64,000 bases of DNA from Verrucomicrobiales bacterium (GCA_035550135.1 DASZQB010000107.1:12064-76063); one strand, 5' to 3'; counted from the first letter of the stretch, positions 3,759-64,000 are shown. Made by a program: numbers and translations. The notes: generated from the sequence alone by a model not told the origin.

Positions 3759-3849
3759 TTGCGAAAAATATAGCACTCCCGTCACTGACAATGCCAGACG
3801 AATTCAGGAAAGCATGTTAGCGCCCGGCCCGGCGCCCTCCGGTGGAGAA

Positions 3850-6807: not shown

Positions 6808-6972
6808 GTGCGGCATCGTAACCGGCAATGCCGCGCTATCAAGTGCCCCGTCCGGTGTCTGCGCTCCCATTCCCCGCCTTCCGCACGCCTTCGCATTTCC
6901 CCCGGTTGCCTGCCAACCCCGTTGCAAGGCCCCGGAATTGCATGGAAGGTGTACCATCCTCATTGCCCTCTC

Positions 6973-46928: not shown

Positions 46929-47331
46929 TTCACGTCCGTCGCCGCACGCGCTCAAAAGCGTAAATCCGGCGAGCGACGAGGACGGAGGACAGTTCCGGAA
47001 TGGCGGAGAAATATTCCCGTTCACCCGGTTGGAACGGCGCATTCGTCCTCCCTATGGTCGGAGTAGTGATAAAGCGGAAGTTCGAAGGACGGACACGCCC
47101 CGCCCCTTCGTGCGCCTGCGAGCGGAGAGGGAGTAATTTCGCCGAATGCCGCCATTCCGGGGAGAAAACGGCGAAATCAACGAAACAACAGTATCTCGTT
47201 CCAACGGCGTTGATGACTGCAGCGCCGTCGCGGGAAAAACCCGGGCGAATTCCCAGGAGGGTGTCTTCCCGCCTTCGCGGGAGAAAGAACCCCTGCCCTT
47301 CGCCGCTTATCGTTTAATGTTCCTGCAGCAT

Positions 47332-48558
47332 ATGTTGACAACGACCAGAAAGAAAACCGCACTCATTGCATCCGGCTGGGCCGCGTGCACCGCTTTGGCC
47401 TTTTGGGCCGGGACCCATTGGCGTGGAGAAAACTCCGATGCGACAGAAAGGGCGAAACGGGCGGCACTTTTGCAGAGTGGATTAAACACAGGTGAAGCGA
47501 AGGGAAGCGGGCGCATCGGACAGACGCCGGACGGATCCCCGGCCAAAGACGCGGCGGTCATCGGAGCAAAGGCCATCCGCGAGCTGACGCCGGAGCAAAC
47601 CGCCGCGCGGACGAAAGAGATTTTCGCGATGGAGGACATGCAGCAGCGCACCGAGGCGTTTCTGGAAATGTTGAAAGGTCTCCACGGCAATGAGCAAATC
47701 TCAGCCGCCATGGAGGCGATGACCGAAAACGGCTACAACAACCGCGAGCGCGGCCGGGAGTTTTCCATGCTCATGACGCGGTGGGCCAAAGAGGACCCGG
47801 AAACCGCCCTCGCATGGACCCAGAAACACGGAGACTGGCGCAATCGCTGGGGCGCTCAGACGGCACTGGCCGTGTGGAGCCAGAATGACCCTGACAAGGC
47901 TGTCGCGTGGGCCCTGGCGCACCCTAATAAAGACAAGGAGGAGGGGAACCATAACATGGTCGGGGTCATCAACGGCCTAACGAAAACGAATCTCGATCTC
48001 GCGGCGCAACTGGCACAGAACATGGACCGCAGCAATGCCCGCGGAGAGGCCATGGAGCGCGTGCTCGAACAGTTTTTCAAACAACGGGGCCCGGACGCCG
48101 CCAAGGAGATGGTGATGGGTTTACCCGATGGTCCTTACAAAAACGGCGCCCTCGGACGCCTTGCGGACCGGCTGGCCGATTCCGATGCCAAGTCCGCAGC
48201 AGTCTGGGCCGCCGCTCTTCCCGACGGCGAAGCGAAACCTGGTGTCGTCGCACAGGTGGTTGATGAGTGGGCGGGAAAGAATCCCAACGACGCCGGCAAC
48301 TGGCTCAATGCCCTTCCGCAGACGGCAGCCATGGATGAATCCCGGGAACGCTTCGCTTTCAGAGTCCAGGAGAAGGATCCCGAGGCCGCCATCGCGTGGG
48401 CCGGCACCATCACCGACGAAAACCGCCGGAACAAGACCTCCTTCCGGCTGGTCCGGGAATGGATGAGCCGCGAACCGGACAGTGCCAAAGCCTGGGTGCG
48501 GAACAGCCAGTTGCCCGCGGATATGAAGGAGCGGCTCATCAACCGCCGCAGAGGGTGA
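47332..48558 (+). CDS. N-terminally anchored helical-repeat protein, paralog 3 of the 'W..DP..A..W' family
   Basis: The ATG at 47332 (MLTTTRKKTALIASGWAACTALAFWAG; alternative 47317) is preferred over the track start at 47146. Repeats include WAKEDPETALAWTQKH, WSQNDPDKAVAWALAHP and WAGKNPNDAGNWLNALP. Confidence 0.7.
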   Translation: MLTTTRKKTALIASGWAACTALAFWAGTHWRGENSDATERAKRAALLQSGLNTGEAKGSGRIGQTPDGSPAKDAAVIGAKAIRELTPEQTAARTKEIFAMEDMQQRTEAFLEMLKGLHGNEQISAAMEAMTENGYNNRERGREFSMLMTRWAKEDPETALAWTQKHGDWRNRWGAQTALAVWSQNDPDKAVAWALAHPNKDKEEGNHNMVGVINGLTKTNLDLAAQLAQNMDRSNARGEAMERVLEQFFKQRGPDAAKEMVMGLPDGPYKNGALGRLADRLADSDAKSAAVWAAALPDGEAKPGVVAQVVDEWAGKNPNDAGNWLNALPQTAAMDESRERFAFRVQEKDPEAAIAWAGTITDENRRNKTSFRLVREWMSREPDSAKAWVRNSQLPADMKERLINRRRG

Positions 48559-48567
48559 TTTCCCGGT

Positions 48568-49308
48568 TCACGGCTTCCCCGGGCCCGTCAGATTCCAGCT
48601 TTCTTTCCAGTCGTCACCCGTCGGCTGGATTCGGTGATACCAGGATTCCGGCGGCCATTTACTTTCATTCAGGGGTTTGGCAGCAAACAACTGAACATCG
48701 TCGACCGGGACGGCTGCAAAATTCGTCCACTTGTTGTCGAAGATCGTTTGCAGCAGCCGCCTGCTGCAAAGAGTGGTCCCGCGTGATCCGATGGGCTCAT
48801 TCTCCCGGTACGGCAGCAAGTCCGACCCGTCCCAACTGGCCTTAAGCGGGATTCTCTGAACGAACCGGGCATGGCCGGGGGCCTGCCTTGCTTCATGTTC
48901 CAGCACTTCTGAAATGAACTCCATTTTTCCCGCTTCATTTTCCCCCGTGAAGTAGCGCAGAAGGAAGGTGAGCGGCCTGCCGCGCGGCACCATCACATAG
49001 TAATTGCCGGGAAGTGCGGGTACGAGACCCGTGCGCGTGAATTTCACCTCCCGGAAATCCACCCCTTTAAAGGGGTGGCGGCCGATCTCCTCTGCTGCCG
49101 GCTCTGAAACGACCAGCGGCGCGGAACTACTGAAGGCATTCAGGCAATCCCCCCAGGTGCGGCCTTTCGATACCTCCGCGCGCGCCGGACGGGTGGACTC
49201 CATGATAGTTTCGGTCGCCGGTTGAAGATCTGTGATCATAACGGCACCGCGTGCCCCGTGCCGGTGAAGATTAAATATCGGTATTTCCTTCAAACTGGAT
49301 TCAGACAT
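48568..49308 (-). CDS. hypothetical protein; candidate immunity partner of the upstream toxin-like C-terminus
   Basis: The ATG at 49308 (MSESSLKEIPIFNLH...) lies 17 nt after the stop of the 2572-aa gene, on the same strand. The track start at 49344 is a TTG overlapping that gene. No family recognised. The immunity call rests on position only. Confidence 0.55.
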   Translation of the reverse strand: MSESSLKEIPIFNLHRHGARGAVMITDLQPATETIMESTRPARAEVSKGRTWGDCLNAFSSSAPLVVSEPAAEEIGRHPFKGVDFREVKFTRTGLVPALPGNYYVMVPRGRPLTFLLRYFTGENEAGKMEFISEVLEHEARQAPGHARFVQRIPLKASWDGSDLLPYRENEPIGSRGTTLCSRRLLQTIFDNKWTNFAAVPVDDVQLFAAKPLNESKWPPESWYHRIQPTGDDWKESWNLTGPGKP

Positions 49309-49325: not shown

Positions 49326-52300
49326 TTACGGAGTGAATTCCCAATCGATGGATTTGGCCTCGAAATTCATAGTTTTACCAACCAATTTTTCTTTGAAAGC
49401 CTCGATTTCCGGAAGTGTGGCATTCGGGTTCAGCGCCCTCCATCGTTCCCACTGATAATTGAACGCGTTTCCAGTCTCGCCGAACCCTGTCAGGCCTTTT
49501 CCATTCACGATGTAGTGGAAGTCTGCGGGGAGCCAGCGGCCCGAGTTGGTGCCTTCATGGACATCGATGCCTCTTTTGGCAAAGTACTCCTCCATGTCCT
49601 GGGGATAGTCATGATGCGCCACCGCCGGGCGGGTCTCAGCCCAGTGCGGCTTGTCACCCAGCCTTCTGCCCAGCAGAGCACTGCCTTTCGTCGTACCTGA
49701 CTGTGTTATTCCCATCTTCCAAAGATCCTCCAGGTTCTGTCTTGTGATCCTGCCGTCCGCGATCATCGGGCGCAGTTCGACGAAGAGCGCACTCCGGTAA
49801 TCATGTTTGCGGGTGGCTACGTCGAGGGCGGCTATCATGGCTTCCTTGATCTCCGCTCTGCCGCCGCCCGGGAGCTTCAGAACCAGTTTTTTAATGCGCC
49901 CGGCCTTGAATTGTTTGTGGAGCGTGCGGGCCATGGACCCGCCTTTTACCGTCAGAAGCGTAACAAAGAGGCTTACGGCACCCGCCTTGGCATCACCTTC
50001 GGAGATGGCTTTGGCACCGTCATAGGACATGACCATGACGCCGACGCTCATGTAGTAGATGGACAGTGACTCCGCAAAGGAGCGCCCGAACGCGGAGAAG
50101 GATCCTGAGACGGCGTCTTTCAATCCCTGCTGCCAGAGACGTATAAACTCCTCCTTGCTCGTCGTTCCGTCCGCCATGCGGTTGCCCAGATCCTCCCAGA
50201 AGGAAGGCTCGATGCGGAGAGTCGACCTTACCTTCGCGGGGCTTTTTGCCATCTCCTGCAGTTCCACCAGTGCTTCGGCCAGCCCCTGCACCGCCTTCTC
50301 AAGAGTGGGCAACTCCTTGCGGCTGAGCCACAGAGTAGGGGTCTTATCAGGACGCAGTATCGCATCGTAGCCTGAGATGTAATCCCAGTACCAGTCCCAG
50401 GGATCGCCCCACCAGGCCGTCTCGTTAATCTTGATGGCCAGACCCTGATTTTCGTACCACTCGAGCACCTCCGCTGCGCCTGGACCGTTCAGGAGCCCAA
50501 ACATCATTCTCACGTCCTCGAAGGTGTAGGGGCCGCCGGGGTTGACATACGGATCGTCGGCAGGAGGCGGCTCCTCGGTCGGGGTACTGACGCCGGTCGT
50601 GTGTCGCGACTCCTCCAACATTTGGACGGCGGAAGCTGCCTGCAGCTGTTCCAACTGCAATTTGGTCACCGCCGGATTGAGACAATAATTTGCGGAAAGT
50701 TTGGAATTCGCCGCAAAAATGGACAGTTCGCCCGTTGGCGCAGTGACATAGAGTTGATCGAAGAGAGGATCCACCGGCGGAAGGTCGCCGGTGGGAGAAG
50801 TCTTCAGGATCACCGGCACGCCGTTCATCTTCGGTGTCATGCCGTTCAGGGGGGTAAAAGTCGGGGCGGCGAGCTTGGGCACGGTCAATCTCAGCGCAAA
50901 CGGCGTGGCTTGCGGAGGATCCTCTATGTCCGTTCCCGGGTCAGTGATGACAGTATCGATAACCCTCAGGGCTTCCGATGCCGGCAGCATGGCACCGGAA
51001 TCGACGCAGTTGAAGAGGCGCGTGCTGCCTCCGGTTTCCTGCCAGGTCCCCAGGACCGCCGTGGTCGAGGTGGGCGATCTGATTTCCAGACGGGCTGAAA
51101 GATAACGCGCTGTCGCGGAGGGTGGATCAAGGGTGCGGAGATTGAGACCGTAGGTGGTATTCTGGGCCGTGGTGTACTCAAAATACAGGCCGTCATAGTG
51201 GCCCACGGGTTCCTGCAGCGTGGCGGTGATGCCGCCGCTCAGGGTCACGGAATTCCGCACGCCGTTGGACGGCTCTCCTCCCACGAAGAAAATGCTCACC
51301 GGACTGGGGGGCGGCACGTTCACGGGCTCGTAGCTCACACGGTCCAGCACCACAGTGGCGTCCGCCCGCCCCCGCTTTTCCGCCGCGTTTTTCCGGGTAA
51401 CAAATCCCAGCGACACCGGCTGGGGATCCGTGACCTGAATGGTAAAGGATCCCTGGAACTGACATTCGGAGCGGGATTTTTCCCATGGTGCCTTCAACGC
51501 GCCCCCCTGATTGATGAGCGTCCCGGTCGCCGTCGTCTTGAGGACGCCGTTCACGTAGATGTCCAGCAGGTTGGCCACGGAGGCACTGCCGGTCATCTCC
51601 GCATGAATGTCGCGCGCCTTCGCCGTGTAGCTCACGGTCACCAGCTTCGTGGGCGAGATGGTCGAGGACACGGTGGTGAGCGTCACCGTGGGACTCAGCG
51701 GGGAGTGGGGGATGGACCCCCCCAGATTGGAAAAGACTCCTGTGATCGGGTCTCGGGATATTGCATCAACCCTCACCGGCATCAGAAGCATAGGATTGGT
51801 GTGATCCGCCCACGCCAAAATCACGCCGTTCTGATTGATGTCGGTACAATTGGACAACATCGATGGTCCGGGAACCGTGAGAGATTTACGGATCTTACTA
51901 AACGAGTTGTTTTGATGAACGTCGAAGTCGTCATGGTCATCGGACCAAAAGATGCCCATCCCCTGATTGTTCACCTTGGTCCAGGCCCATGTGAGAAAGC
52001 CCCAGTCCACCCCGCCCTTTCTAGTCGCTTTTTCCCAGGCGGGAGTTTGCAAGGCGTCATTCCATGCATACACGGTAAAGCCCTCCTGTGCGAGCGGGCC
52101 TGACCCATGGATCGCGGGCTTCATGGAATTGATCCATGATCCCGACTCGGGGCCGGAGGCCTTGTCGTGCCATCCGCCGCCGGCGTCGCGGTTCCAAATT
52201 TTCATCACGTCGCCGTCTTCGTCTCTGGTGCGTGACAGAAGCCAGTATTCATCGCTTCGGACCAGTGATACGGGAGCATTCCCCGGTTCCGCCCAGAATC

Positions 52301-55300
52301 CTCCGGTTCCCCAATCGAGTGCGTCAGTGCTGTCTAAAAACACGTCGCCGTTTGCACCGGGGCGCAGCAGCAAAGCCCGCCTGAACTTCGGCGGGAGCTG
52401 TCCTCCTTGTGGCAGGACCACGTCTTTAAAGGTCAGCGATCCAGTTTCCGGGACGAACAGGTAGGCTCCGTCATTCTCCAGATTTTGGTCCCAGTAGTAC
52501 AAATCCAGCAATGCCCGGCCTTCGTCGTCAAAGTCCAGAACCGTACCGGAGTAATGGCCCGTTCCTTCGGCCGTCAGGACTTGCTTCGTTGAGGCAATCC
52601 ATACTTTAAATTTCACGTCATCGGCTCCAGGAGGGTCCGGTACTGAAAACAGCACATCTCCGCGGTTGTTGAGAGCCAGCGGCTTTCCTTCCACGCGGTC
52701 ACCTGAGGCCGTTGTCAGGAACATCGGGACGTAACGGACCGTCGGCGTACGAAAGAATTTGAGTTCCTTGCTGTTCGGAACTGCATCATTGCTGTCCATC
52801 ACGCCATCCCCGTCGAAATCCCTGAGGTGCCCCAGGCCCGCGGCTTCAGAATCACAGCGGCCGTGCCAGCCATACCAGCGGGTTGTCCATTCCGAAGGAT
52901 CCAGGCCCAGACGGATTTCCTCCAAATCGGTGACACCGTCCTCGTCGGTATCGGTCTTCGGCTGCGCGGCATCCGGTTTGCCGGGATCTCCCGCGGCGTT
53001 GAACAGATCCTTCAGTTTATAACCGCTCCCCTCCATTCGACTGTCCGGAGTGACCGTCGCGAAGGAGGTAAACGCGTCATTGGGGCTGAGGTTGATGACG
53101 TAAAGTTCGAACCAGTCTGGCAATCCATCGGGTTGGGGGTCTGAGTCCACCCATTCGTCGCAGCCGGCCTCGATACTGGATCCCGGACGCGGTTCGAGGT
53201 CAAAATCATAACTGCGGGTGCGTTTGGCGCCTGCGGGCCGCTCCACCGCCAGTCCGGTATGAGCGGGATTCGCGCCCCCTAAAAGATGTACCACTTCCGG
53301 CGGCAGGGGCGCGGCAATGTGGATGCCGTCGAAGGCCAGGGTCGGACGGATGCTCACGCCGCCGGGAAGAGTTTGCTGAGAATTATTGCCGGCGGCAGCG
53401 AGGGTTCCCTCCGGGCTGAAAACCTGGGTCAGAGCGGGAGTGTTGAACCATGTGATATTGTTGAAGAATTGGGCATCCCCCGAAGCATAGATTGCGCCCC
53501 CTTCACCGGCGCCTGAGTGATTTCCGGTGAGAGTGCAGTGGACGATAATGCCGTCAGGATAGGAATCGCCCTCCGAACCGCCCACAAAGACTCCGCCACC
53601 GACAGCTCCGGCGGTATTTCCACGAATGGCACAGTTCGCCAGACGCGGGACGCTGGGAACGCCGGCGGGCGTGTTGGGAGGTGAAGTTCCATTGACAGTG
53701 AAAAATCCCGGGCCGACACCCCGGACATAGATCGCGCCGCCTCTCTCCGCAGCCTCATTATCATGGAAGTCACTGCTGAAAACGGAGGGACCGCCGACCG
53801 CTGTGACGAAGAGAGCGCCTCCCTGGGACGACCCATCGAGCGACTCCGCGATATTGCCGGTGAAGCGGCAACCATGAAGATCCGTATTGCAGCCGTTGAG
53901 CACCACTCCACCGCCCTCACTATGGATCGACAATACGGGATGGGCGACATTTTCAGCGAATACGCAGTTGGCGAGGACATTGTCAAAAACACTGACGGGA
54001 ACGGTCGCGTTAGTGTAAAACTCGCCGCTGAAGGTGGAATATCCCGTCAAACTGTTAAGGGACGCACCGCCGCCTGAGCCGGCGGTATTGCGAAAGAAAA
54101 CGCAGCCATTGAGATTCAGGCCCGCCCCAGGGCCGACGCAGTAAACCCCGCCCCCAACGGCGGCGGCATTATAGGCGAAGGTGCAACCGGCAGCGGAAAA
54201 CCGGGCGGTGGAACCGCTGTGGACCGCACCTCCAAGGCTGGTAGCTTCGCAGCCTTGGAACACGCAGTTCGTAAGTTGAAAGCGGCGTCCGGCGGATCCC
54301 GGCGACGATTGATAGGAAATGGCACCCCCGTTTACAGCCTTGCAGCCGGTAAACGTGCAGTCGTAAACCATCAGCCCCTGAGTGTAGCCTTGCCAAAAAA
54401 ACACACCGCCGCTGCCTCCGGCGGGGGCAAGCCCGTGACGGAATTCGATTCCCCGGATGGTCCACTCCGGAGAACCGTAATAGGAGGAACTTGTTAGGAA
54501 CCGCCTCCGCACACCTTTTGCGTCCTCCAGTTCGATCACCACGCTCCCTGGGCCATTGAGGCTCTTGAGCGTAAAGGCAATAGTGCCGGAAACCATGAGG
54601 GACGGCGTTGACAGGTCCCGGTTTAAGTTGCCGGAATAGGTTCCGTCGCGCAGGCAAATGCGATTACGGGTATTCGGAACCAGGAGCTGCAGAGCCCGGC
54701 TTATCGTGCGAACGGGGGAACTTATGTAACCATAGTTGGCGTCGTTGGCGGAGATCCCTGCCGCATCTACAAAAATGCAAACACTGGATTCATAGCCGGG
54801 GTAGCGGGGATCGGAACCGTTGGCGTATTCTTCAATATTGGTAAAGCCGTCCTGATCGGCATCCTTGTCGCCATCCGCTTTGTCGTTCGGATTTAACTGG
54901 TACTTGATCTCCCATGACGAAGGCATGCCATCGCCATCGGTATCGGCAAAGGCAAAGGCTCCCCGCTGGGCGAGTTGAGGCACCGGGAGACGGGGGACAC
55001 CTTCGATATCCGTCGCGGGACGCGGAGGATTCTGATTCGGATTCGGATTGGCTGCAGAGGGCACCGTGGCGTAACGGAGGATCGGGGTTCCGGAAAGGAA
55101 ATTCGGGTTGTTCGCGTCGTTGCCACTACCCGGAAGGATGACAGGCGGAGCCGTGGCGGATTCGACGGTGCAGTAAGCGGCGCTCCACAGCGCCGTTCCG
55201 TTCACCTGACTTTTTACCCCCCCGCTTATCCGGTTGTCCCACAAAATGCAGGAGTTGAGGGTAATCGTTCCGCCGGCATTGCCGTTAAAAAGCCCCCCCG

Positions 55301-57044
55301 ATTCTGTCCTGGCTGTATTACTCAGGATCGTGCAATAGCTGAGAGAACCGGTAACGCCCCCGGCGAACCCAACGGCTCCCCGGCCGGTTGTGTTGATAAA
55401 GTTAGAGCCGATGTAGCAATTCTCAATTTCGCAGGAGCCCCCTTGAAAAAAAAGTGCAGGTCCGTCGCCATTGGTCGTATAATTGGACGTGAATCGGCAA
55501 CGCCGGATCTTCACTGCCGATTGTTGCGCATAGCACGCGCCGCCATGGTATCCTGACTGGCAGGTGCTGAAGGTGCAGTCCTCAGCCGTTAGGGGCGCGC
55601 CGTTGACGAACACGCCACCTCCGAGACTGGAGGCAAAGCAGGCGGAAATCGTGCACCGCCGGATGGTAACGGGAACGCCATCCGAAAAAATCGCGGCGCC
55701 CCTTTGACCGAAACCCTCACGAAATGACGTGATGGTTAGTCCCTCCACGACGAAAGGGCCTGCGGACGGAGCGGTCGTGTAAAAACAGGAGTGTGTCGGA
55801 TCTCCAACGATCGTGGCGCCTTGCGTTCCAACAATCGTTACGGGTTTGAGCACCTGAATACTCTGGTTGCCGGTGCCGATGAAAACATTGCCGCCGCCCT
55901 GCAAAACCACCCGTCCGCCAGCCGGCACGGCAGCGATGGCGCTCGTAATGTTCGCAAACGGCTGGTCGAAGGTGCCGAGGAAGGGCGCTACCGCATTCGC
56001 TCTCGCATAAACCACCGTACTCGAAGCAGTACCTGCGTTAAGAGACGGGTCGTTCGGGTTGGTCTGTGCTGTAAATTCCTCGGAATTCGTGTAGCCGTCG
56101 AGATCAAGGTCCACGTCTTTGTCCGACGCCGAGGCTGGATTGAGAGCGTAATAGTATTCCCAGCCATCGAGCATGCCGTCGTCGTCGGAGTCGTCGTCGT
56201 TCGCTTTCGTTCCCAGCAGGTATTCTGTGATGTTCGTCACCCCGTCGTAGTCTTTGTCGCTCTCCCGGTCGTCAGCGCTGGCATTGAGGTAATTATCGTA
56301 CTCCCAGGAATCCGGCATCGCATCCTTGTCGGCATCCGCGTAGAGCGGGTGAGTGTCGCCCGTTTGGAAATCGTCGATGAACGTGTATTTACCAGTGGCT
56401 GCCCGGACCACAAAACTGCCGGAGGCGGGCGAATTCGGAGGGTGATTGATCACCTCAAGCTTTCCATTGATCCATAAGTCTGAGATCGTCGCTGCAGGAT
56501 CCGTCCGGAGGGTAAGGCGCAGCCAATTTTTGAGATATGATCCGTTCTCAATGAAAAGCGCGGGACCGGTAGCCGTCCATGTGCCCCCGCCCGCCGGCGA
56601 ATACATATACAGCCGGGCTGTCGTGGCGGAGCCAACCTGCACGATCATCGCCGGAACCGAATCAATGACGAGCTGCGCTTCAGCTACTGTCCATGACGGA
56701 ACGGTATTCACAGGAATCGTCTTGCCCACAGGCAAACGCAGGGAGACGTCTAGGAAACGCACTCCGCTTCCCGCCGCTGCCGCATGCGAAAGCGTGCCGG
56801 CGGCGCTGCTCGAGGTGAACTTGAGCGACTGGTCCCCCGAGACACTTAACGCCCTTGAAACTTCCAGCGCCCCCCCGCTGAAACTCCATCCTCCGGGAGG
56901 ATTCTTTTGAGAAACCGTTCCGACCTGCCAATTATTTGGAGCATTGGGGCGGGTTTCGAATTCATCTGCTTGATTGGCGGCACGGCTGGAACGGAAGCCG
57001 CAGAAGAAACAAAGGAGAGCAGCAACGCTGGGGACTATTTTCAT
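49326..57044 (-). CDS. 2572-aa secreted giant protein: LamG-like region, TSP3-like repeats, two Pmp-like beta-helix blocks, a long uncharacterised trunk and a C-terminal AHH-type nuclease-like tip
   Basis: Signal peptide MKIVPSVAALLCFFCGFRSSRA. Asp-rich TSP3-like motifs (DKDYDGVTNITEYLLGT, DLDLDGYTNSEEF, DQDGFTNIEEYANGSDP, DTDEDGVTDLEEIRLGLDP). Many GGA[ILV]/GGGV plus FxxN pairs (GGAIYASGDAQFFNN, GGAIYVRG, FHDN, FAYN, FFRN). C-terminal ...AVAHHDYPQDMEEYFAKRGIDVHEGTNSGRWLPADFHYIVNG... Confidence 0.85.
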   Translation of the reverse strand: MKIVPSVAALLCFFCGFRSSRAANQADEFETRPNAPNNWQVGTVSQKNPPGGWSFSGGALEVSRALSVSGDQSLKFTSSSAAGTLSHAAAAGSGVRFLDVSLRLPVGKTIPVNTVPSWTVAEAQLVIDSVPAMIVQVGSATTARLYMYSPAGGGTWTATGPALFIENGSYLKNWLRLTLRTDPAATISDLWINGKLEVINHPPNSPASGSFVVRAATGKYTFIDDFQTGDTHPLYADADKDAMPDSWEYDNYLNASADDRESDKDYDGVTNITEYLLGTKANDDDSDDDGMLDGWEYYYALNPASASDKDVDLDLDGYTNSEEFTAQTNPNDPSLNAGTASSTVVYARANAVAPFLGTFDQPFANITSAIAAVPAGGRVVLQGGGNVFIGTGNQSIQVLKPVTIVGTQGATIVGDPTHSCFYTTAPSAGPFVVEGLTITSFREGFGQRGAAIFSDGVPVTIRRCTISACFASSLGGGVFVNGAPLTAEDCTFSTCQSGYHGGACYAQQSAVKIRRCRFTSNYTTNGDGPALFFQGGSCEIENCYIGSNFINTTGRGAVGFAGGVTGSLSYCTILSNTARTESGGLFNGNAGGTITLNSCILWDNRISGGVKSQVNGTALWSAAYCTVESATAPPVILPGSGNDANNPNFLSGTPILRYATVPSAANPNPNQNPPRPATDIEGVPRLPVPQLAQRGAFAFADTDGDGMPSSWEIKYQLNPNDKADGDKDADQDGFTNIEEYANGSDPRYPGYESSVCIFVDAAGISANDANYGYISSPVRTISRALQLLVPNTRNRICLRDGTYSGNLNRDLSTPSLMVSGTIAFTLKSLNGPGSVVIELEDAKGVRRRFLTSSSYYGSPEWTIRGIEFRHGLAPAGGSGGVFFWQGYTQGLMVYDCTFTGCKAVNGGAISYQSSPGSAGRRFQLTNCVFQGCEATSLGGAVHSGSTARFSAAGCTFAYNAAAVGGGVYCVGPGAGLNLNGCVFFRNTAGSGGGASLNSLTGYSTFSGEFYTNATVPVSVFDNVLANCVFAENVAHPVLSIHSEGGGVVLNGCNTDLHGCRFTGNIAESLDGSSQGGALFVTAVGGPSVFSSDFHDNEAAERGGAIYVRGVGPGFFTVNGTSPPNTPAGVPSVPRLANCAIRGNTAGAVGGGVFVGGSEGDSYPDGIIVHCTLTGNHSGAGEGGAIYASGDAQFFNNITWFNTPALTQVFSPEGTLAAAGNNSQQTLPGGVSIRPTLAFDGIHIAAPLPPEVVHLLGGANPAHTGLAVERPAGAKRTRSYDFDLEPRPGSSIEAGCDEWVDSDPQPDGLPDWFELYVINLSPNDAFTSFATVTPDSRMEGSGYKLKDLFNAAGDPGKPDAAQPKTDTDEDGVTDLEEIRLGLDPSEWTTRWYGWHGRCDSEAAGLGHLRDFDGDGVMDSNDAVPNSKELKFFRTPTVRYVPMFLTTASGDRVEGKPLALNNRGDVLFSVPDPPGADDVKFKVWIASTKQVLTAEGTGHYSGTVLDFDDEGRALLDLYYWDQNLENDGAYLFVPETGSLTFKDVVLPQGGQLPPKFRRALLLRPGANGDVFLDSTDALDWGTGGFWAEPGNAPVSLVRSDEYWLLSRTRDEDGDVMKIWNRDAGGGWHDKASGPESGSWINSMKPAIHGSGPLAQEGFTVYAWNDALQTPAWEKATRKGGVDWGFLTWAWTKVNNQGMGIFWSDDHDDFDVHQNNSFSKIRKSLTVPGPSMLSNCTDINQNGVILAWADHTNPMLLMPVRVDAISRDPITGVFSNLGGSIPHSPLSPTVTLTTVSSTISPTKLVTVSYTAKARDIHAEMTGSASVANLLDIYVNGVLKTTATGTLINQGGALKAPWEKSRSECQFQGSFTIQVTDPQPVSLGFVTRKNAAEKRGRADATVVLDRVSYEPVNVPPPSPVSIFFVGGEPSNGVRNSVTLSGGITATLQEPVGHYDGLYFEYTTAQNTTYGLNLRTLDPPSATARYLSARLEIRSPTSTTAVLGTWQETGGSTRLFNCVDSGAMLPASEALRVIDTVITDPGTDIEDPPQATPFALRLTVPKLAAPTFTPLNGMTPKMNGVPVILKTSPTGDLPPVDPLFDQLYVTAPTGELSIFAANSKLSANYCLNPAVTKLQLEQLQAASAVQMLEESRHTTGVSTPTEEPPPADDPYVNPGGPYTFEDVRMMFGLLNGPGAAEVLEWYENQGLAIKINETAWWGDPWDWYWDYISGYDAILRPDKTPTLWLSRKELPTLEKAVQGLAEALVELQEMAKSPAKVRSTLRIEPSFWEDLGNRMADGTTSKEEFIRLWQQGLKDAVSGSFSAFGRSFAESLSIYYMSVGVMVMSYDGAKAISEGDAKAGAVSLFVTLLTVKGGSMARTLHKQFKAGRIKKLVLKLPGGGRAEIKEAMIAALDVATRKHDYRSALFVELRPMIADGRITRQNLEDLWKMGITQSGTTKGSALLGRRLGDKPHWAETRPAVAHHDYPQDMEEYFAKRGIDVHEGTNSGRWLPADFHYIVNGKGLTGFGETGNAFNYQWERWRALNPNATLPEIEAFKEKLVGKTMNFEAKSIDWEFTP

Positions 57045-57064
57045 CGTGGCGTATGGGTTGGAAT

Positions 57065-57397
57065 TCAGGGTTCTTCCTTGATTACTGGCACCGGTGGCGG
57101 GGCATGTTCCGGGGGGAGCGTTGTCAATTCGCCGGACTGGAGCTGACGGCGGATTTCAGAAAACTGATCCACTTTTTTCTCACCTTTTGCGACAATGCCG
57201 GCAGCCACCGAAGGAGCGGATGGAACGGGAACAGCTTTGGTTCCTTCGCGCAGGGCATTCGATCCTTTACCCGTCACATCGGCTGCCGGCGGCCTTTCAG
57301 GTTCTCCTTTTGGCCACCAAAACCAAATCGCAATTCCGGCAAATACCGGGACGATTCCTAATACGAACAGGCGGCGGGGACGGGCCGGGGTCTGCAT
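57065..57397 (-). CDS. small single-pass membrane protein upstream of the giant gene
   Basis: MQTPARPRRLFVLGIVPVFAGIAIWFWWPKG, then a Pro/Ala-rich tail. It ends 20 nt before the giant gene start. Confidence 0.5.
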   Translation of the reverse strand: MQTPARPRRLFVLGIVPVFAGIAIWFWWPKGEPERPPAADVTGKGSNALREGTKAVPVPSAPSVAAGIVAKGEKKVDQFSEIRRQLQSGELTTLPPEHAPPPVPVIKEEP

Positions 57398-57757
57398 AAT
57401 TTCGGAACGCTAGCAAGTTGGCGTGCCTGACTTCAAGCACAATTTTTAAAATAATTTTAATGGGAGCGGCCGCGACTGCGCTTTGCCCGGAAATTCGTGG
57501 CCGGCAGCGCCTTTCTGAAATCTACCTTCTTCAAGCCGTCTGCCTGAAATTATCGCTCCACTTTCCGGGAATTGAACACCGCGGCGGGGCCTGCAGTCTT
57601 TATTGGCGGGGAATTTCCCCTGCCTGCATCCATCCGCCCGGGACCTGCGTTTTACCATTCCCGGCAATTTCTCTTGCTTCTTTCCCGCCCGGTCCATACA
57701 ATCCGCGCCCCACCAAAGGTCCCAAGCCGGTCTTTGCTTTCCGCCACATCCTTCCCC

Positions 57758-58766: not shown

Positions 58767-60260
58767 ATGAGCAAGAATCTGAAAGGCCTGAAAGGCAAAA
58801 GTTATAACGAAGTGATGAACGAATGGGCTGCCCAGCAGTCCTTTCTGCGGCGGGCAAGTTCAGGGCTCCTGCGGCCTGGTTATGATGTCACGGGCTACGC
58901 GCGGCTGTGGGGATGGCTTTGGCGGATGCTGATTCTCACGGGCGTTCCGCTGCTGCTTTATATGGGCGTGCTGCGGGTGTACGGCAAGGGTCCGGCTTTC
59001 AACACTCAAATGACCGCCGAAGTGAAGCGGTTTCTAGGAGCGGAAAATGTGGTTCTCGGGGCGACGCGCTGGGACCTGAACGGGGAACTGAGGATTGCGT
59101 CCATGAAAGTGCAGGGCAAGTCGGCCAACATTTTCCAGGATTTGAAGGCGGAGAATCTCAGCACGTGGATCACGGTGCCTAACGTTTTCAAATCCGACTG
59201 GCACCTGAAATCCGTCGATTCGGTAAAAGCCTCTATTTCCCTCCGCCCCGGCGGCTCTCCGAAGGTGGCTTCCGGTTCGCCGGAAAGCGGTTCGAAACTG
59301 CTCACCGCCGGCTGGGGTATCAAACCGGATTTTTCCCTGCTGACGGTGGACCAATACAAGTCCGACAGTCTCACCCTGACGTGGGGCGGCAATCCGGCGA
59401 CCACGGGTGAACTCACGGGCAGCAATGCGACGCTCACACACAACGGGGCGGATTGGGACCTCCTGCTCGCCGGCGGCACTTTCCGTCAGGGATGGTTTGA
59501 CCAGATCCGCGTGCTGAACGCGAAAGTGAAGATCACCCCTGAGCGCGCGGTGTTTGAAAAAGGGGAGTTCGCCATTGCCGGCGGCGGCAACGGAACGCTG
59601 ACAGGAAACATTGCGCTGGGTGAGTTTCCGGAGGTGGACCTCACCATCAATGTCGAGAACACGCCGTTCCATCCATTCCTGCCGGAGTTCTTCCAGAACT
59701 ACGTCAAGGCACTCAGCAAAGGAACCATCAAGCTGAGCGGTTCCACCAACCGCAGCACCGGCATTCTGATGGACTGCAATTTTGATCTCCTGTCAGGCAA
59801 AATTATCGGTGTTCCGGTGTTTCGCGCGCTGGAACTGGCCACGGAGGAAACGCACGTGGCGCAGCCGGAAATCAAAGGCGGACACGTTCGATTCACCAGT
59901 CAGGGCACGCAGGAAAACGGCGGATTCCTGCTCGAAGCCAGTGACGTGGTGCTGGACTGCGGAGCGAATCTCAAGATCGGCCTGACGATCCGGCACGAAC
60001 GCAAGGAGGTGCAGGCCAGCAATGCCCGTGAGGCGGCGGCTGCCACCGGCGACAGCGTGTCCCTAACGACTGTCGGCACTATCCGCATCGGCCTGCCGCC
60101 GGAAACCTTCACCAAGCTGAAACCCGCCATCCGTCAGGAGTTCTTCACCCGGGAGGACCAGGGCCTGCACTGGATGGAGGCTCCCTATCGCATGGAGGAT
60201 GGGGAGTTCACCAAAGATACTGCGGACCGGATCATCGCGCTGCACAACGGCGGCAAGTAG
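58767..60260 (+). CDS. membrane-anchored hypothetical protein
   Basis: One TM segment (LWGWLWRMLILTGVPLLLYMGVL), then ~420 aa of beta-rich sequence. Clean ORF. Confidence 0.7.
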   Translation: MSKNLKGLKGKSYNEVMNEWAAQQSFLRRASSGLLRPGYDVTGYARLWGWLWRMLILTGVPLLLYMGVLRVYGKGPAFNTQMTAEVKRFLGAENVVLGATRWDLNGELRIASMKVQGKSANIFQDLKAENLSTWITVPNVFKSDWHLKSVDSVKASISLRPGGSPKVASGSPESGSKLLTAGWGIKPDFSLLTVDQYKSDSLTLTWGGNPATTGELTGSNATLTHNGADWDLLLAGGTFRQGWFDQIRVLNAKVKITPERAVFEKGEFAIAGGGNGTLTGNIALGEFPEVDLTINVENTPFHPFLPEFFQNYVKALSKGTIKLSGSTNRSTGILMDCNFDLLSGKIIGVPVFRALELATEETHVAQPEIKGGHVRFTSQGTQENGGFLLEASDVVLDCGANLKIGLTIRHERKEVQASNAREAAAATGDSVSLTTVGTIRIGLPPETFTKLKPAIRQEFFTREDQGLHWMEAPYRMEDGEFTKDTADRIIALHNGGK

Positions 60261-60273
60261 AACGCGCCTTCGG

Positions 60274-63200
60274 TTATTTGCCAGGCTGGTTCAAGTCCCA
60301 GCGCAGGATGCAGCCGTGACTGTCTCCGGAGAAAAGAGTGCCCGTTCTGTGATCGAAGGCGGCCACGCTGCCGCTGAAAAGCGAATGCGGCTTCCACGTC
60401 AAACGCCGTTCGTTTGCCGGACCATCGGTGCGTTCCACCGTGACGCCGTCTCCCATAAAGACGCGGACTTTTGAGTTTTCGCCGGACGTAAACTCTCCCC
60501 ATGCCGGCGAGCCCCGCGGACGATTGGGGCGCTGGAGGGTGAAATCCGGCACAGACTTTCCGTCTTTGGCCAAGTCCGGAACGGGCTTGCCATCGGCAGT
60601 CGAGAACACGCGAAACAGCAGGGATTCCACGGCAGCGCCGGAGGCGTCATATGTCTGGGCCCGCCTCGAAAATACGAGACGCGAACCATCGTCCGAGAAG
60701 GAGACGCCAGGATTGTAGTCTCCCGACCAATCCCTGAGATTGAGGGAGGGTCCGGCCGTGACTTTGCCGTCCTTCAGTTTCCAAAGCGACCATGAGAAAT
60801 GGCCGGCCACAGCGATTGCGCTCCCGTCCGGGGCGCAGGCAAGAACTCTTTCCTCCCGTTGAAACCGGTGGAGTGTTTTCGGCTCTCCCTCACCCGGAAT
60901 GCGCATGAGGTCTCCCTGTTCGGTGACGCACAAAATGTCCGAAGGGCTGATGAACTCCATCCAGCGAATGGCCGCGGGCAGCGTGGCACACGTCCTGTTA
61001 TTCGATCCGTCGGACTGACATCTGACAACTTGTCCATGAATGCTGCCGGCGGCTACCTGCGAACCATCGGAGGAAAGCGCGATGGCCGTGATCCCCATTG
61101 AAGTTCCGCCGATGGTGCGCACCGGCCATGGCGGAGGCGCGGTCTGCGGAAGCTCCACCAGATGCCAGTCGCAGGTGGAAACCGTTACCTTCGCCGGCGT
61201 GCCCACCGGACCAAGAGACGGCATGAATTCGAGCCGCACACGGAGCTTGGGTGCATAACGATAACCGTCCGGGGGAGTTATGTCCCTCGCTCCGCTATCC
61301 ACAAAATACCATGCGCCATCCGACGCATTGACCGTATAAACCATGAGCCGGATCGGAACCGGATCGGGAGCGGGTTCGCCTTCCAGCACGGCCTGCAAAT
61401 GTCCCTGAGTGCCGGCCACGCGAACCCAGCCGGTGAATTGATAGCGCCTCAAAGGCTCGAAGGGAACTTCCGGACTGGCGATGGAAAGCGAGTCACCGGT
61501 GCGCGCTTCGACGGTGGCGGAATAACCAAATGCACCCGGGCGGTCCTCCGGGGGCAGCGCTTTCCAGATGACTTCCTTCGGTGTGGAGATCCATGATTCT
61601 TTTCGGTTAGGATCAGGAACAAGGATGGAGGCGGAGGGCGGCGCCGCACGCAGCAGAGCCCGGCCATTGCGCATCACGGCGTTGAATTCGGACTTCCCGT
61701 CGTGGCGGCGCTGAGTCCTGACAAAATCCGCGCGGGGGAGTGTCAGAGAGCCGGCGAGCGGCACAGCTTTGGTGGAAGGACCTTCATTCCACGAAACGCC
61801 ATCACCGCTGGTGAAGGAAAGCAGTTCTCCGGCGGGCGGCAGAGCGGCCCGGTCCGCAGGCCATGTCAGGAGCGGAGCCGGCGGACGAAGCGAACGGTCT
61901 CCCGTGTTAGGATTTCCGGGCCGGAGGCCGCAGCGGTGCCAGCACAGAAGCAGCGAATCGTTTTCCCCCGGCGCGAGCCATGTCAGGAATTCGCCGTCCG
62001 AAACCTTTCGCTGTCCAACGGCCAGTTGGGCCTCCATATCGGCAAGAGGGGGATTGAAAGAAGAGGTTTGCGCCTCAGGCACTTTGCGCAGAAGGGCGAT
62101 GTCCGCGGCCGCCTCGTCCCAGCGTTTTGCAGCAAGGCATATCCTGACCCACTGGGCGCGGGTGTACGCATCCCGCCCGACGGATTTCTCCGGAGGCGGC
62201 ATCGACGCGAGCCAGCGCCGGCCTGTAGTGAACAGAAAATTCTGCAGGTCCGGAAGCGCTGGCGATTGTGCTTTCCGCCAGAGTTCGGCGGCGGTGCGCG
62301 CCAGTCCTTCCGCGTCCCTGCCGGCGGCGAACGCGTCGAGCAGGGGCATGTTTTTGCGGAGGGCGGCGGCAGCCTCCTCCGCCATGCCGTGGTCCAGCAT
62401 GTGATTGAAAGTGACTATAAATTCGTCAGGGTAAAAACGCGATTGGCCATCAGACGGGCGCTTTGCCGCAGCCTCCCATTGGTCCTGGTGTCCGGCCATG
62501 CGCAGCCGGAGAATGTCCTGCACCAAAGGCGTGTCTTTGTTTTCCAGGGCCAGCGGGAACGCGTGCTTAAGCACGTCCCATGGATATGCGTGCTGCGCAT
62601 TCGGCCCGCTGCGGGACGTCACCGCCTGCAGATGGAATTTTGTCAGGAAACGGAAATAGGCCAGCGGGTCAGCGCCGGGCAGCGCAGTCATCAGATCGAA
62701 ACTGATCGTTCCGCCGCCGGTCGTGAACGCTTCGAGTTTTGCCGGTGTGCTTGAGGGCTCGCGAACGCATTCCGCGATCAAAAGCAATTGTCGAATGATA
62801 GAGGCGGGAGCCTGTGCCCGCCCTGCCCCTTCGATCTCGGCGCGCGCCCTTTCCACCAAAGGGGTGGAGAGATTCTGTTCATGCAAAAACTTGATGATCT
62901 CCACTTCGGCAATGACCTTTTTCCCATCGACGCCGGAGAGAATGAAGTACTGAAAAAGACCCGGACAACCCTCGAGGAACTTTCGGCGGCGCGGAAAATC
63001 CACGGCATCCGCCGGAAGAACCAGTTCCGCCGGCGCCAGTTTTTCAAGGAGGATCTGAGCGGTCTCCGGAAGCATGCTCAACTCACTGGAGAGATCCTTG
63101 ATCGCGACGAACAACGCCGCGCCCGTATGACTGGAAAGAGGCAGGACTTTCAGAAGAGCCGGAAACAGGCGCTTTGCATCGCTGTCCGCGCCCGCTTTGT

Positions 63201-64000
63201 GGAGTGCACTAACATACTCCATGAGAGCCTGTGAATAGTCAGGACTCAACGATGGGGGATTGCTCCTTGCCTCCATTTCCCTGCAATACGAGATGCAGAG
63301 GTCCGTGAAGGCGCTCAGCTTGCCGGCCTCTTTCAGCGCCGGAATGATGGACTTTTCCGACACGCCCGCAATGGCCTGGAGCGGCGACATCTTCATGAGG
63401 AGATACTGCAGATTGCCAACCTCCTTTAGACCGGACGGTTGCAGGTGAAGCTGGTGCATCAGCCCGGAGATCACGTCGGGAGGAGCAGTTCCATTCCGCA
63501 CCAAATGGCGGGCGTAACGAATCGATCGGGCCGCAGCGCCGGATTTTGATTCCTTATCGCCGGGCACTCCATACCGATACATCGTGTAAAGATTGTGCGG
63601 GATGGGAACATTTTTCGGGTCGCGGGCCATGTCCGCCTCCATGCCGGCAAGTTCGGCCTCCCAGAGCTTTTCTTTCTGAAGCATCCCGGCCACTGCGGAT
63701 TTCACCTGAGGCTGGGAATCATTGAATGGCCGCCGCAGAATGGCGCGGGCCAAACGCACCGCTTCCTCCTTTTCCGCGGGACCTGCCTGCATCAGGCGGT
63801 CCATGCGCACCGCGTCCACCATGTCCTGATGCGCAGTCCGTGCCTCCGGCGTTGCCCCTTCCGGAAGAGCCGGCAAGTCCAGCCGGAATTGCTGTGGCGG
63901 CGGAAGCGCCTTGTCGGATTCCGGAAAGACATGCAGAGCCTGAGGCGATGCTGTCCCGGCAACACCGCTTCCATATCCTCGCGCAGCAAAAACCTCCTGG
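60274..64000 (-). CDS. large helical-repeat protein with a C-terminal WD40-like propeller, 5'-partial (N-terminus probably beyond the window end)
   Basis: The track start at 63876 is a TTG. My translation upstream of it (QEVFAARGYGSGVAGTASPQALHVFPESDKALPPPQQFRLD...) has no stop up to nt 64000. The C-terminal region has propeller-like segments (ALSSDGSQVAAGSIHGQVV, ACAPDGSAIAVAGH, SFSDDGSRLVFS). Confidence 0.8.
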   Translation of the reverse strand, partial: QEVFAARGYGSGVAGTASPQALHVFPESDKALPPPQQFRLDLPALPEGATPEARTAHQDMVDAVRMDRLMQAGPAEKEEAVRLARAILRRPFNDSQPQVKSAVAGMLQKEKLWEAELAGMEADMARDPKNVPIPHNLYTMYRYGVPGDKESKSGAAARSIRYARHLVRNGTAPPDVISGLMHQLHLQPSGLKEVGNLQYLLMKMSPLQAIAGVSEKSIIPALKEAGKLSAFTDLCISYCREMEARSNPPSLSPDYSQALMEYVSALHKAGADSDAKRLFPALLKVLPLSSHTGAALFVAIKDLSSELSMLPETAQILLEKLAPAELVLPADAVDFPRRRKFLEGCPGLFQYFILSGVDGKKVIAEVEIIKFLHEQNLSTPLVERARAEIEGAGRAQAPASIIRQLLLIAECVREPSSTPAKLEAFTTGGGTISFDLMTALPGADPLAYFRFLTKFHLQAVTSRSGPNAQHAYPWDVLKHAFPLALENKDTPLVQDILRLRMAGHQDQWEAAAKRPSDGQSRFYPDEFIVTFNHMLDHGMAEEAAAALRKNMPLLDAFAAGRDAEGLARTAAELWRKAQSPALPDLQNFLFTTGRRWLASMPPPEKSVGRDAYTRAQWVRICLAAKRWDEAAADIALLRKVPEAQTSSFNPPLADMEAQLAVGQRKVSDGEFLTWLAPGENDSLLLCWHRCGLRPGNPNTGDRSLRPPAPLLTWPADRAALPPAGELLSFTSGDGVSWNEGPSTKAVPLAGSLTLPRADFVRTQRRHDGKSEFNAVMRNGRALLRAAPPSASILVPDPNRKESWISTPKEVIWKALPPEDRPGAFGYSATVEARTGDSLSIASPEVPFEPLRRYQFTGWVRVAGTQGHLQAVLEGEPAPDPVPIRLMVYTVNASDGAWYFVDSGARDITPPDGYRYAPKLRVRLEFMPSLGPVGTPAKVTVSTCDWHLVELPQTAPPPWPVRTIGGTSMGITAIALSSDGSQVAAGSIHGQVVRCQSDGSNNRTCATLPAAIRWMEFISPSDILCVTEQGDLMRIPGEGEPKTLHRFQREERVLACAPDGSAIAVAGHFSWSLWKLKDGKVTAGPSLNLRDWSGDYNPGVSFSDDGSRLVFSRRAQTYDASGAAVESLLFRVFSTADGKPVPDLAKDGKSVPDFTLQRPNRPRGSPAWGEFTSGENSKVRVFMGDGVTVERTDGPANERRLTWKPHSLFSGSVAAFDHRTGTLFSGDSHGCILRWDLNQPGK

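Follow-up and report, generated by a model that had tools for sequence, protein, structure and literature searches.

Polymorphic toxins that depend on Sec and the type II secretion system (T2SS), and that carry a signal peptide as their only export feature, were described as a class in 2012, with Tox-AHH listed in verrucomicrobia; the same work described lineage-specific constant N-terminal domains that come with an upstream accessory gene, as in MafA-MafB (PMC3482391). MafA is the dedicated outer-membrane secretion factor of MafB (PMC7738311). Among the toxin domains themselves, DUF2380 constitutes the SitA6 polymorphic toxin family of Myxococcus (PMC12077181), and pMF1.20, a DUF2380 protein, cleaves plasmid DNA in vitro, an activity that the product of the neighbouring gene, pMF1.19, inhibits (PMC6091211). 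Repeats of the GGAx/FxxN type, as in the polymorphic membrane proteins (Pmp) of Chlamydiae, are found in >100 non-chlamydial species, including Phycisphaerae, Methanobrevibacter and Trichomonas, and occur also in organisms without an outer membrane (PMC10715098).

We analysed a locus of a Verrucomicrobiales bacterium that is located in a stretch of 64,000 nucleotides (nt) (GCA_035550135.1, DASZQB010000107.1:12064-76063; hereafter the window). Three closely spaced minus-strand open reading frames (ORFs) encode, in the order of transcription, a small protein of 110 amino acids (aa), a giant of 2,572 aa (49326-57044 (-), ATG start) and a protein of 246 aa. The 110-aa ORF stops 20 nt before the ATG of the giant, and the 246-aa ORF begins with an ATG at 49308, 17 nt past the giant's stop. 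We consider it probable that this locus is a three-gene polymorphic-toxin cassette, in which genes for a small bitopic membrane protein and an immunity-like protein flank that of the giant, and that it forms a Sec-dependent toxin system of a bacterium of the verrucomicrobial (Planctomycetes-Verrucomicrobia-Chlamydiae, PVC) group, with toxicity and immunity being predicted. Three features by which polymorphic toxins are recognised were found: a conserved trunk that ends in unrelated tips, a terminal module that recurs on unrelated trunks, and a downstream gene that co-varies with the tip.

Trunk, exchangeable cassette and downstream gene

A word-indexed search, which covered 5.8 billion proteins, returned only five full-length homologues of the trunk (P0001-P0005), which are 28-43% identical to the giant over aa ~10-1513 and unrelated thereafter. 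A scan of a genome collection, which picked generic TSP3 patterns, added two more trunk loci (L011 and L012), with the closest relative there being 39% identical. A pattern search of metagenomes for trunk loci gave no match with a fixed pattern and, with a looser one, six short contigs of uninformative context. Conservation in these rare homologues extends from residue 1 to about 1,400-1,500: BLASTP alignments to P0001-P0005 stop at aa 1376-1513, the well-conserved constant region ending with the segment at aa 1291-1470. The protein P0041 shares aa 1053-1759 of the giant at 34%, so that the six proteins align with the giant only to aa ~1376-1759 and differ in their tips. Named carriers of the trunk are Verrucomicrobiota and related metagenome-assembled genomes (MAGs) of the PVC group, L011 and L012/L013 among them; more distant carriers are a Lentisphaerota MAG and Verrucomicrobium sp. 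BvORR106 (L082). One MAG, CAMDJM01 (contigs L012 and L013; depositor label Akkermansia muciniphila, unverified), holds two paralogous loci of small gene and giant with different tips. Planctomycete-type PSCyt/PSD proteins adjoin one of the homologous loci.

The tips that could be recognised in this family are enzymes of different kinds. P0002 and P0005 end in Amidase_3, and the C-terminus of P0041 is a lipase-like alpha/beta hydrolase with a GHSLG motif (DUF900, 21.6 bits vs a cutoff of 20.5), while domain scans assigned no family to the tips of P0001, P0003 and P0004. The L012 paralogue (L012:9944-15907, 1,987 aa) has no Pfam match at its end; the sequence AAHEIGHFLGL (HExxH) located there suggests a metallopeptidase tip.

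The C-terminal part of the giant has relatives of its own. Word-indexed searches with aa 1391-2200 and with the C-terminal 422 aa gave one match and two matches, respectively; the cassette family emerged only when the last 422 aa were searched exhaustively with HMMER, which returned 32 proteins. According to BLASTP, the last ~840 aa, from aa ~1735 onwards, are also present at the C-termini of proteins with differing N-termini, namely P0042 (55%), P0045, P0046, P0048, P0049, P0058 and P0063. From these, P0042 combines a signal peptide, TSP3 modules and a beta-rich region with no beta-helix, and P0045 and P0048 have N-terminal regions other than that of the giant. Judged by these alignments, a mobile cassette makes up the C-terminal ~840 aa. 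The giant is therefore laid out as a constant stalk plus an exchangeable C-terminus, the arrangement by which polymorphic toxins are defined. IS66 and rve transposases adjoin two homologous loci and one giant is frameshifted, which fits a mobile, fast-evolving locus. The frameshifted gene is that of P0003 (L013:2942-10663, also L005), in which a frameshift or a stop close to the 5' end puts the signal peptide and the first ~100 aa into an ORF of their own; it represents either a pseudogene or an assembly error, and IS66-family transposase genes lie 3' of it. In addition, seven short proteins (P0040, P0044, P0047 and P0050-P0053; 98-242 aa) consist of the tip alone or of the tip with part of the region preceding it. 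These may be contig-end fragments or orphan toxin modules; the contig of P0040 is a 1.5-kb fragment.

The tip of the giant carries the motif AHHDYP...GID...FH...NYQW and had already been called nuclease-like in the preliminary description, an assignment with which the family links agree. Alignment of the last ~130 aa of 27 relatives gave the consensus AHHDxP...F..RGIDIN...GRWLP..FH...HG...GGPWNYQW..FF...P.AT with the invariant positions H (of AHH), F, H and W; the HH pair and one further His do not vary in any relative. Pfam DUF2380 (PF09533) is matched by 23 of the 27 (best E 5.4e-31), and AHH (PF14412) weakly by two (E 0.007). By these matches the tip probably belongs to the DUF2380/AHH-like toxin family. 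In an AlphaFold model of aa 2180-2572 (24-sequence alignment; mean predicted local distance difference test score, pLDDT, 74) the tip is predicted with pLDDT 79-97, and the AHH closes a strand, after which come a helix, another strand and a further helix that bears the invariant His. This predicted topology is compatible with a His-Me finger. PADLOC anti-phage models returned nothing for the tip.

The same kind of tip was found on a different trunk by tblastn against plasmids: an 813-aa RHS-type ORF on the megaplasmid of Ralstonia solanacearum CFBP2957 (L093:3862-6303, which is NZ_CP115953.1, 117576-120017) ends in a DUF2380-like tip that is 33% identical to the giant's over 82 aa, with the common pattern HH...GID...H...W..W...NPNAT. 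Since it stands directly after the RHS core-end motif (...DPIGLNGG...NPLSYTDANGL), this tip also serves as an RHS toxin tip. The PLSDB gene table has no feature at the position of this ORF.

The gene downstream of the giant follows the tip. On the metagenomic contig L010, a 77%-identical ORF comes after a 79%-identical tip with the same 17-nt spacing, and at L091 a tandem pair of homologues (32% and 30% identity, E 1e-29 and 3e-27) stands behind the distantly related tip of P0045. Tip and downstream ORF vary together in three loci. The tandem paralogues of L091 (10421-11983) are 79% identical to each other, a duplicated-immunity arrangement. Hydropathy indicated neither a signal peptide nor a transmembrane (TM) segment in the 246-aa protein, and we infer that it is a putative cytoplasmic immunity protein. 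ORFs after the amidase tips bear N-terminal signal-like or membrane segments, which fits a periplasmic target, i.e., the protection of peptidoglycan. The immunity-like protein of the window holds only two Cys and no CxxCG motif. The ORF downstream of P0048 (L092:8315-9559, 414 aa) has two such motifs (CGICG and CDECG), and it has a WDGSD motif in common with the immunity-like ORF of the window; these motifs hint at a link to the double_CXXCG/Imm11 clan, but neither this ORF nor the window's ORF and its homologues gave a Pfam match.

Several results weigh against the interpretation as a toxin system. The trunk family is tiny (five full-length members plus L011 and L012), so that generalisations rest on few loci. 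The giant itself stays below the family thresholds, with 18.8-25.4 bits against DUF2380 (25.4 for the isolated tip vs a cutoff of 26.3) and 15.4 bits against TIGR02269 (cutoff 85.75), and one His of the common FHxxxH motif is an Asn in the giant. PDB relatives of the tip were found neither by sequence, with the C-terminal 422 aa or with a profile of the tip, nor by Foldseek; the His-Me-finger assignment therefore rests on motifs, family links and the predicted topology. The immunity-like ORF matched nothing in Pfam, NCBIfam, PADLOC or known immunity families. The window holds no orphan toxin or immunity cassettes downstream of the locus, and no gene for an outer-membrane translocator, Omp85/TpsB or a T2SS was present among its 29 larger ORFs or in the homologous loci.

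Architecture of the giant and surroundings of the locus

The coordinates of all features are compiled in Table 1.

Table 1. Features of the locus in the order of transcription; positions are counted from the first nucleotide of the window.
Feature	Position	Strand	Basis
AT-rich leader, candidate operon promoter region	57398..57460	-	ATTAAAATTATTTTAAAAATTGTGCTTGAAG, read from the sequence
Small bitopic membrane protein, 110 aa	57065..57397	-	hydropathy, synteny, alignment
Giant: predicted Sec-type signal peptide, aa 1-24	56973..57044	-	hydropathy and cleavage-type site (heuristic)
Giant: N-terminal globular domain, aa 25-235, conserved	56340..56972	-	alignment of P0001-P0005
Giant: TSP3-like Asp-rich modules of calcium-binding type, set a, aa 236-340	56025..56339	-	DxDxD[GA] at aa 237, 263, 285, 312
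Giant: beta-helix block 1, aa 341-690, degenerate Pmp-like rungs	54975..56024	-	homology to block 2
Giant: TSP3-like set b, aa 691-750	54795..54974	-	DxDxD[GA] at aa 701, 724
Giant: beta-helix block 2, aa 751-1290, motif-rich GGAx/FxxN rungs	53175..54794	-	motifs and Pfam tile match
Giant: helix-capping motif and TSP3-like set c, aa 1291-1470	52635..53174	-	invariant columns; DxDxDG at aa 1365, 1409
Giant: poorly modelled beta-rich region, aa 1471-1735, possibly propeller-like	51840..52634	-	common to P0041; ends in MLLMPVRVDAISRDPITG
Giant: first part of the ~840-aa cassette, all-beta sandwich-like array, aa 1736-2180	50505..51839	-	BLASTP and AlphaFold
Giant: helical pre-toxin region, aa 2181-2470	49635..50504	-	AlphaFold, mainly helical; conserved across the cassette family
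Giant: toxin tip, aa 2471-2572, DUF2380/SitA6-like, AHH-type His-Me-finger-like putative DNase	49329..49634	-	motif, family, AlphaFold
Immunity-like protein, 246 aa, no signal peptide	48568..49308	-	17-nt spacing; homologues beside related tips

The giant is predicted by a hydropathy heuristic to carry a Sec-type signal peptide, as the preliminary description had proposed: aa 3-15 are the most hydrophobic 13-mer of the whole protein (Kyte-Doolittle value, KD, 2.48), with Lys2 before it and a site between SRA and AN after it. No lipobox is present at its N-terminus. The adjoining globular domain shows 23 invariant columns in the alignment of P0001-P0005, and profile searches against Pfam, NCBIfam and PDB sequences found no match to it.

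Eight DxDxD[GA] motifs, together with sub-threshold model matches, bear out the TSP3-like modules that had likewise been noticed earlier: Pfam TSP3_bac reached 19.3 bits in set a and 21.1 bits in set b in tile scans (cutoff 25), and NCBIfam MtsD (throspo3) matched the giant with E 2.9e-9. A further NCBIfam match, to the Amuc_1099 family pilus-like system protein (aa 705-747, 54804-54932; 44.3 bits vs a cutoff of 50), probably reflects the shared Asp-rich motif and not a functional link.

Two blocks rich in GGAx and FxxN motif pairs had been reported for the trunk. Two blocks exist by homology; only the second is rich in the motifs, which lie at aa 906-1193. GG[AG][ILVMF] occurs 11 times in the giant vs 1.6 +/- 1.2 expected from 500 shuffles (maximum 6), a ~7-fold enrichment, and eight of the 11 fall at aa 906-1182. 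FxxN, with 12 occurrences in the whole giant vs 5.9 +/- 2.5 (shuffle maximum 16), is not significantly enriched; eight of these are located at aa 956-1193, where they interleave with the GGAx motifs. Pfam Chlam_PMP (PF02415) is sub-threshold on the whole giant (12.6 bits, E 0.18) and clearly above the cutoff on the tile aa 1001-1330 (37.7 bits vs 20.6, E 1.3e-9, in three stretches). On the same tile, Pfam Beta_helix reached 25.8 bits vs a cutoff of 25.9. NCBIfam POMP_repeat (TIGR01376) remained at 10.3-12.6 bits vs 15 in the scans of the giant. Neither of the two results named beforehand as refuting the preliminary description (a barrel or other known secretion domain in the trunk, or motif spacing that fails against Pmp models) was obtained, although the Pmp signal in the giant depends on the model and on the tile. 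A toxin-tipped giant whose trunk includes Pmp-type beta-helix repeats is thus supported. Block 2 also contains a DUF1565 match (aa 764-806), and a PDB sequence search with this block found no relative.

Block 1 holds one strict GGxx motif only and has no Pfam match as a tile, but an N-terminal NosD-family match (E 1.1e-4), and homologues of the trunk show clean DDGGA(V/I) rungs at its position. Together with the preceding TSP3 module it is homologous to block 2 and its module (BLASTP, 24% over 455 columns, E 7e-12). The trunk therefore holds a tandem duplication of a [TSP3 + beta-helix] unit. After block 2 comes the capping motif D.D.E.R...GCDEW.D.D...LPDWFE, and the invariant columns of this region include G1294, C1295 and D1296 as well as W1311 and E1313.

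The remainder of the trunk is less well characterised by models. AlphaFold, run on aa 1391-2180 with a 10-sequence alignment (mean pLDDT 58), was partly confident over the first strands past the third TSP3 set (pLDDT 50-80 at model residues 45-125), poor over aa ~1515-1690 (<35 at model residues 125-298) and confident, with an all-beta fold, over aa ~1730-2135 (mostly 70-93). Foldseek searches of this model against PDB gave nothing at E <= 0.001, and the weak top matches were propellers and Ig-like sandwiches, not membrane barrels. An identity of aa 1471-1735 as HAF repeats or as a propeller was considered and set aside, as no model supports it and the AlphaFold prediction is poor there.

A junction strand of the form hhhP(V/I)x(V/I), which is MLLMPVRVDAISRDPITG in the giant, directly precedes the C-terminal cassette. 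Strands like it also stand before the variable cassettes, amidase and lipase ones included, of P0002, P0003, P0005, P0041, P0042 and P0045. In the DUF2380-type cassette it is followed by (D/S)F(I/V)(S/T)R(D/N)PxTG (window 51790-51850, aa ~1725-1745). By analogy, this strand may be a recombination boundary with a role comparable to that of the VENN motif of CdiA.

In the pre-toxin region, where AlphaFold confidence is low at model residues 128-190, two hydrophobic stretches of 13 residues were found (aa 2327-2339, KD 1.69; aa 2354-2366, KD 2.14). A classical TM anchor was rejected, as no 19-residue window exceeds KD 1.5; as a speculation, the hydrophobic region is a candidate membrane-interacting or translocation segment.

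Upstream of the three genes, the leader stretch is AT-rich (ATTAAAATTATTTTAAAAATTGTGCTTGAAG) vs ~59% GC in the surrounding region, and scans for consensus sigma-70 promoters and terminators found nothing above chance. The rest of the 64-kb window is ordinary chromosome. Its 29 larger ORFs gave Pfam matches of a housekeeping kind only, to MetH, a Pst ABC transporter, a two-component system, fumarase, a Ser/Thr kinase and proteins with a beta-lactamase fold or with Calx-beta and PKD domains. Large flanking ORFs (470-1,200 aa) lacking a Pfam match are located at 60274-63876 (-), 4909-7764 (-) and 1251-3791 (-) as well as at 47146-48558 (+) and 58767-60260 (+), the last of which, encoding 497 aa, begins with an N-terminal hydrophobic segment. 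Two minus-strand stretches, 32396-34252 (-) and 20581-26738 (-), encode a 618-aa protein with a marginal YadA_head repeat match, a 642-aa Calx-beta protein and a 1,458-aa protein that joins Big_5, PKD, propeller and di-haem cytochrome c peroxidase domains; all three are predicted to be envelope or secreted proteins.

Export, the small upstream gene and alternative explanations

Scans of the whole giant and of tiles with Pfam and NCBIfam revealed no autotransporter, TpsA, type IX secretion system (T9SS), PEP-CTERM or other sorting domain. More specifically, there was no match to the type Va barrel PF03797, no two-partner secretion (TPS) domain, no haemagglutinin repeats, no match to the Por_Secre_tail or LPXTG models, and no match to MafB-N/DUF1020 in the giant or to a MafA-type model in the small ORF. 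The Pmp middle domain (PF07548) was absent from the whole and tile Pfam scans even at E <= 10. The C-terminus of the giant is the toxin domain: its last 393 aa were modelled as helices plus a small alpha/beta tip, not as a barrel, and Foldseek against PDB with aa 2180-2572 returned nothing at E <= 0.001 and no barrel. The lack of an autotransporter barrel that had been noted from the sequence is thus upheld by domain models, AlphaFold tiles and Foldseek alike.

The small gene was initially pointed out as a 110-aa single-pass protein gene ending 20 nt upstream of the giant and worth a synteny check. Both the coordinates and the TM helix hold, and the check was positive. The gene lies directly upstream of every trunk homologue examined (L001, L003, L005/L013, L006, L009 and L012) and accompanies the trunk in 7/7 loci. 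Upstream of P0042, where the C-terminal cassette sits on a trunk that has no beta-helix, it is missing, and no other neighbouring gene is conserved among the homologous loci examined. Its product is predicted to have a basic N-terminus, one TM helix at aa 10-28 (best 19-residue window, KD 2.14) and a low-complexity periplasmic part, with the C-terminal motif R..L..GEL(T/S).LP...PPP. BLASTP detected homologues with E 1e-4 and 4e-4; members of the family measure 106-188 aa, have no conserved lipobox and combine the N-terminal TM helix and low-complexity middle with a C-terminal motif R..L..G.L(S/T).LP...PPP. PADLOC gave no match for this ORF. On the strength of this synteny the small gene is a conserved partner of the trunk, and from its predicted topology the protein looks anchored in the inner membrane.

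Because the small gene goes with this trunk in all seven loci, is missing with another trunk and is the only conserved neighbour, and because no known secretion domain was found, we put forward tentatively, as a rather doubtful but possible reading, that the small protein and the ~1,400-aa constant region together constitute a dedicated, previously undescribed route for the export or surface anchoring of giant Sec-dependent toxins in Verrucomicrobiota and related PVC bacteria. Such a route would be functionally analogous to MafA-MafB and built from unrelated parts.

For the toxin system as a whole, we propose the following course of events. The giant would be exported to the periplasm by Sec. 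From there, a general route (T2SS-type) or one not yet known would take it to the cell surface or into the medium, and the upstream bitopic protein and the conserved N-terminal domain may be involved in this. The beta-helices, stabilised by calcium, would act as a rigid stalk presenting the cassette. Once a neighbouring cell is contacted, the ~100-aa His-Me-finger-like DNase would enter it with the help of the pre-toxin region, which is helical and hydrophobic, and would degrade its DNA, with the cytoplasmic immunity protein shielding the producer and its kin.

A different function is conceivable for the same architecture. The giant could be a surface-displayed or secreted scavenging enzyme or an adhesin, whose stalk presents hydrolases for the acquisition of nutrients or for remodelling of the biofilm matrix, with the downstream gene encoding a self-protection chaperone or something unrelated. 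This would agree with the fact that the recognisable tips in the family are all hydrolases, that stalks of the TSP3, beta-helix or lectin-like type are frequent in adhesins and in enzymes acting on polysaccharides, and that the locus lacks an array of orphan cassettes. However, the genes downstream are tip-specific, co-vary in three loci and are duplicated in one of them, the tip type is also found on an RHS toxin and on the SitA6 kin-discrimination toxins, and a protector without a signal next to the nuclease vs signal-bearing ones after the amidases is the pattern expected for toxin and immunity. We therefore regard a scavenging or adhesive function as unlikely.

Less probable still is that the giant never leaves the envelope, being tethered in the periplasm or at the inner membrane by the small bitopic protein, where it would have a structural or cell-wall role, with tips acting on the cell's own envelope or in DNA uptake. 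It has a Sec signal alone and no outer-membrane route was found, its partner is predicted to be anchored in the inner membrane with a periplasmic tail, and Amidase_3 tips would find their substrate in the periplasm. Yet a DNase tip would not find its substrate in that compartment, and no signal peptide is present in its protector; a stalk of >1,400 aa with two beta-helices and eight motifs of calcium-binding type is hard to fit into the width of the periplasm; and the exchange of tips across trunks, together with their use by RHS proteins, points to delivery to other cells. We consider retention in the envelope very unlikely.

The PVC group comprises Chlamydiae as well as Verrucomicrobiota, and together with the Pmp-type rungs that score in block 2 and a PATR-repeat giant near the P0001 locus this could suggest a type V substrate, either with a barrel encoded elsewhere (split or two-partner) or as a Pmp autotransporter that decayed and lost its barrel when the toxin cassette was inserted, but we consider this the least probable of the explanations, as TpsA domain, Pmp middle domain and PF03797 barrel are all missing, no TpsB/Omp85 gene is linked in the loci examined, autotransporter passengers stand N-terminal to a C-terminal barrel whereas the giant ends in a soluble toxin domain, Pmp-type repeats occur also where there is no outer membrane, and all seven trunk homologues are without a barrel, making its absence the normal state of the family and not a sign of decay.

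Comparison with known systems

In block 2 the giant resembles the chlamydial Pmp proteins, with GGA(I/L/V)-type and FxxN motifs paired on successive rungs of a predicted right-handed beta-helix; as in those proteins, a Sec-type signal stands at the N-terminus. Chlamydial Pmp proteins consist of PF02415, PF07548 and PF03797, whereas in the giant the middle domain and the barrel are absent, TSP3 modules interrupt the repeats and the C-terminus is a toxin cassette. As it lacks both middle domain and barrel, the giant, on its domain content, falls outside the chlamydial Pmp family. Rungs of the GGAx/FxxN type mark right-handed beta-helices in general (PMC10715098), and their occurrence without a barrel is no anomaly in itself. 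The idea of a chlamydial type V passenger with an anomalously missing barrel, which the preliminary description implied, is not supported.

With regard to the tip, SitA6 and pMF1.20 probably share the toxin domain family with the giant (PF09533/TIGR02269). The delivery differs: SitA6 proteins are small single-domain lipoproteins that are moved by TraAB outer-membrane exchange, while the giant is a 2,572-aa non-lipoprotein with the domain in its last ~100 aa, and the immunity family of SitA6, double_CXXCG (PF09535), was not detected in the ORF downstream of the giant. A similar C-terminal tip stands on the Ralstonia RHS toxin; there the trunk is an RHS shell that ends in the DPxGL core motif, the 840-aa cassette is lacking and export presumably takes another route. 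A nuclease domain of myxobacteria, SitA6/DUF2380, is now linked to RHS toxins as well as to giant beta-helix toxins.

The closest class is that of the Sec/T2SS-dependent polymorphic toxins, above all those whose tips are of the Tox-AHH type (HNH/EndoVII) and are followed by an immunity gene. As in these, the giant has a signal peptide only and a long repeat trunk, its tip is exchanged between homologues and between trunks, and a tip-specific gene lies directly downstream. In contrast to the described members, the trunk is not of the RHS, FilH, ALF or tail-fibre type but consists of a duplicated [TSP3 + Pmp-like beta-helix] unit and a beta-rich region; the exchange cassette comprises ~840 aa, the immunity-like protein fits none of the catalogued Imm families and a small upstream gene is conserved. 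By sequence comparison, new features here are the type of stalk, the size of the exchange cassette, the immunity-like family and the bitopic partner. The TSP3 and Pmp-like beta-helix stalk joins the list of trunks presenting exchangeable toxins.

For the small upstream gene, MafA-MafB appears to be the best functional analogy. In both cases an accessory gene is followed by a toxin with a Sec signal, a conserved N-region and a polymorphic C-terminus, and then by immunity, with no recognised secretion domain. There is no sequence relationship, so that only gene order and logic are common to the two; MafB proteins are several-fold smaller than the giant, and the small protein, with its single N-terminal TM helix, differs from MafA, which is an oligomeric protein of the outer membrane. 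Polymorphic toxins with a Sec signal only are the least understood export class in diderm bacteria, and MafA-MafB, the one solved case, revealed a new secretion system. The locus described here provides a second test case that is compact and unrelated to the first: it has three genes, one of them for an accessory protein that is conserved, and a translocator is not linked to it. Protein export has received little study in its phylum, which counts abundant lineages of environmental and gut habitats among its members.

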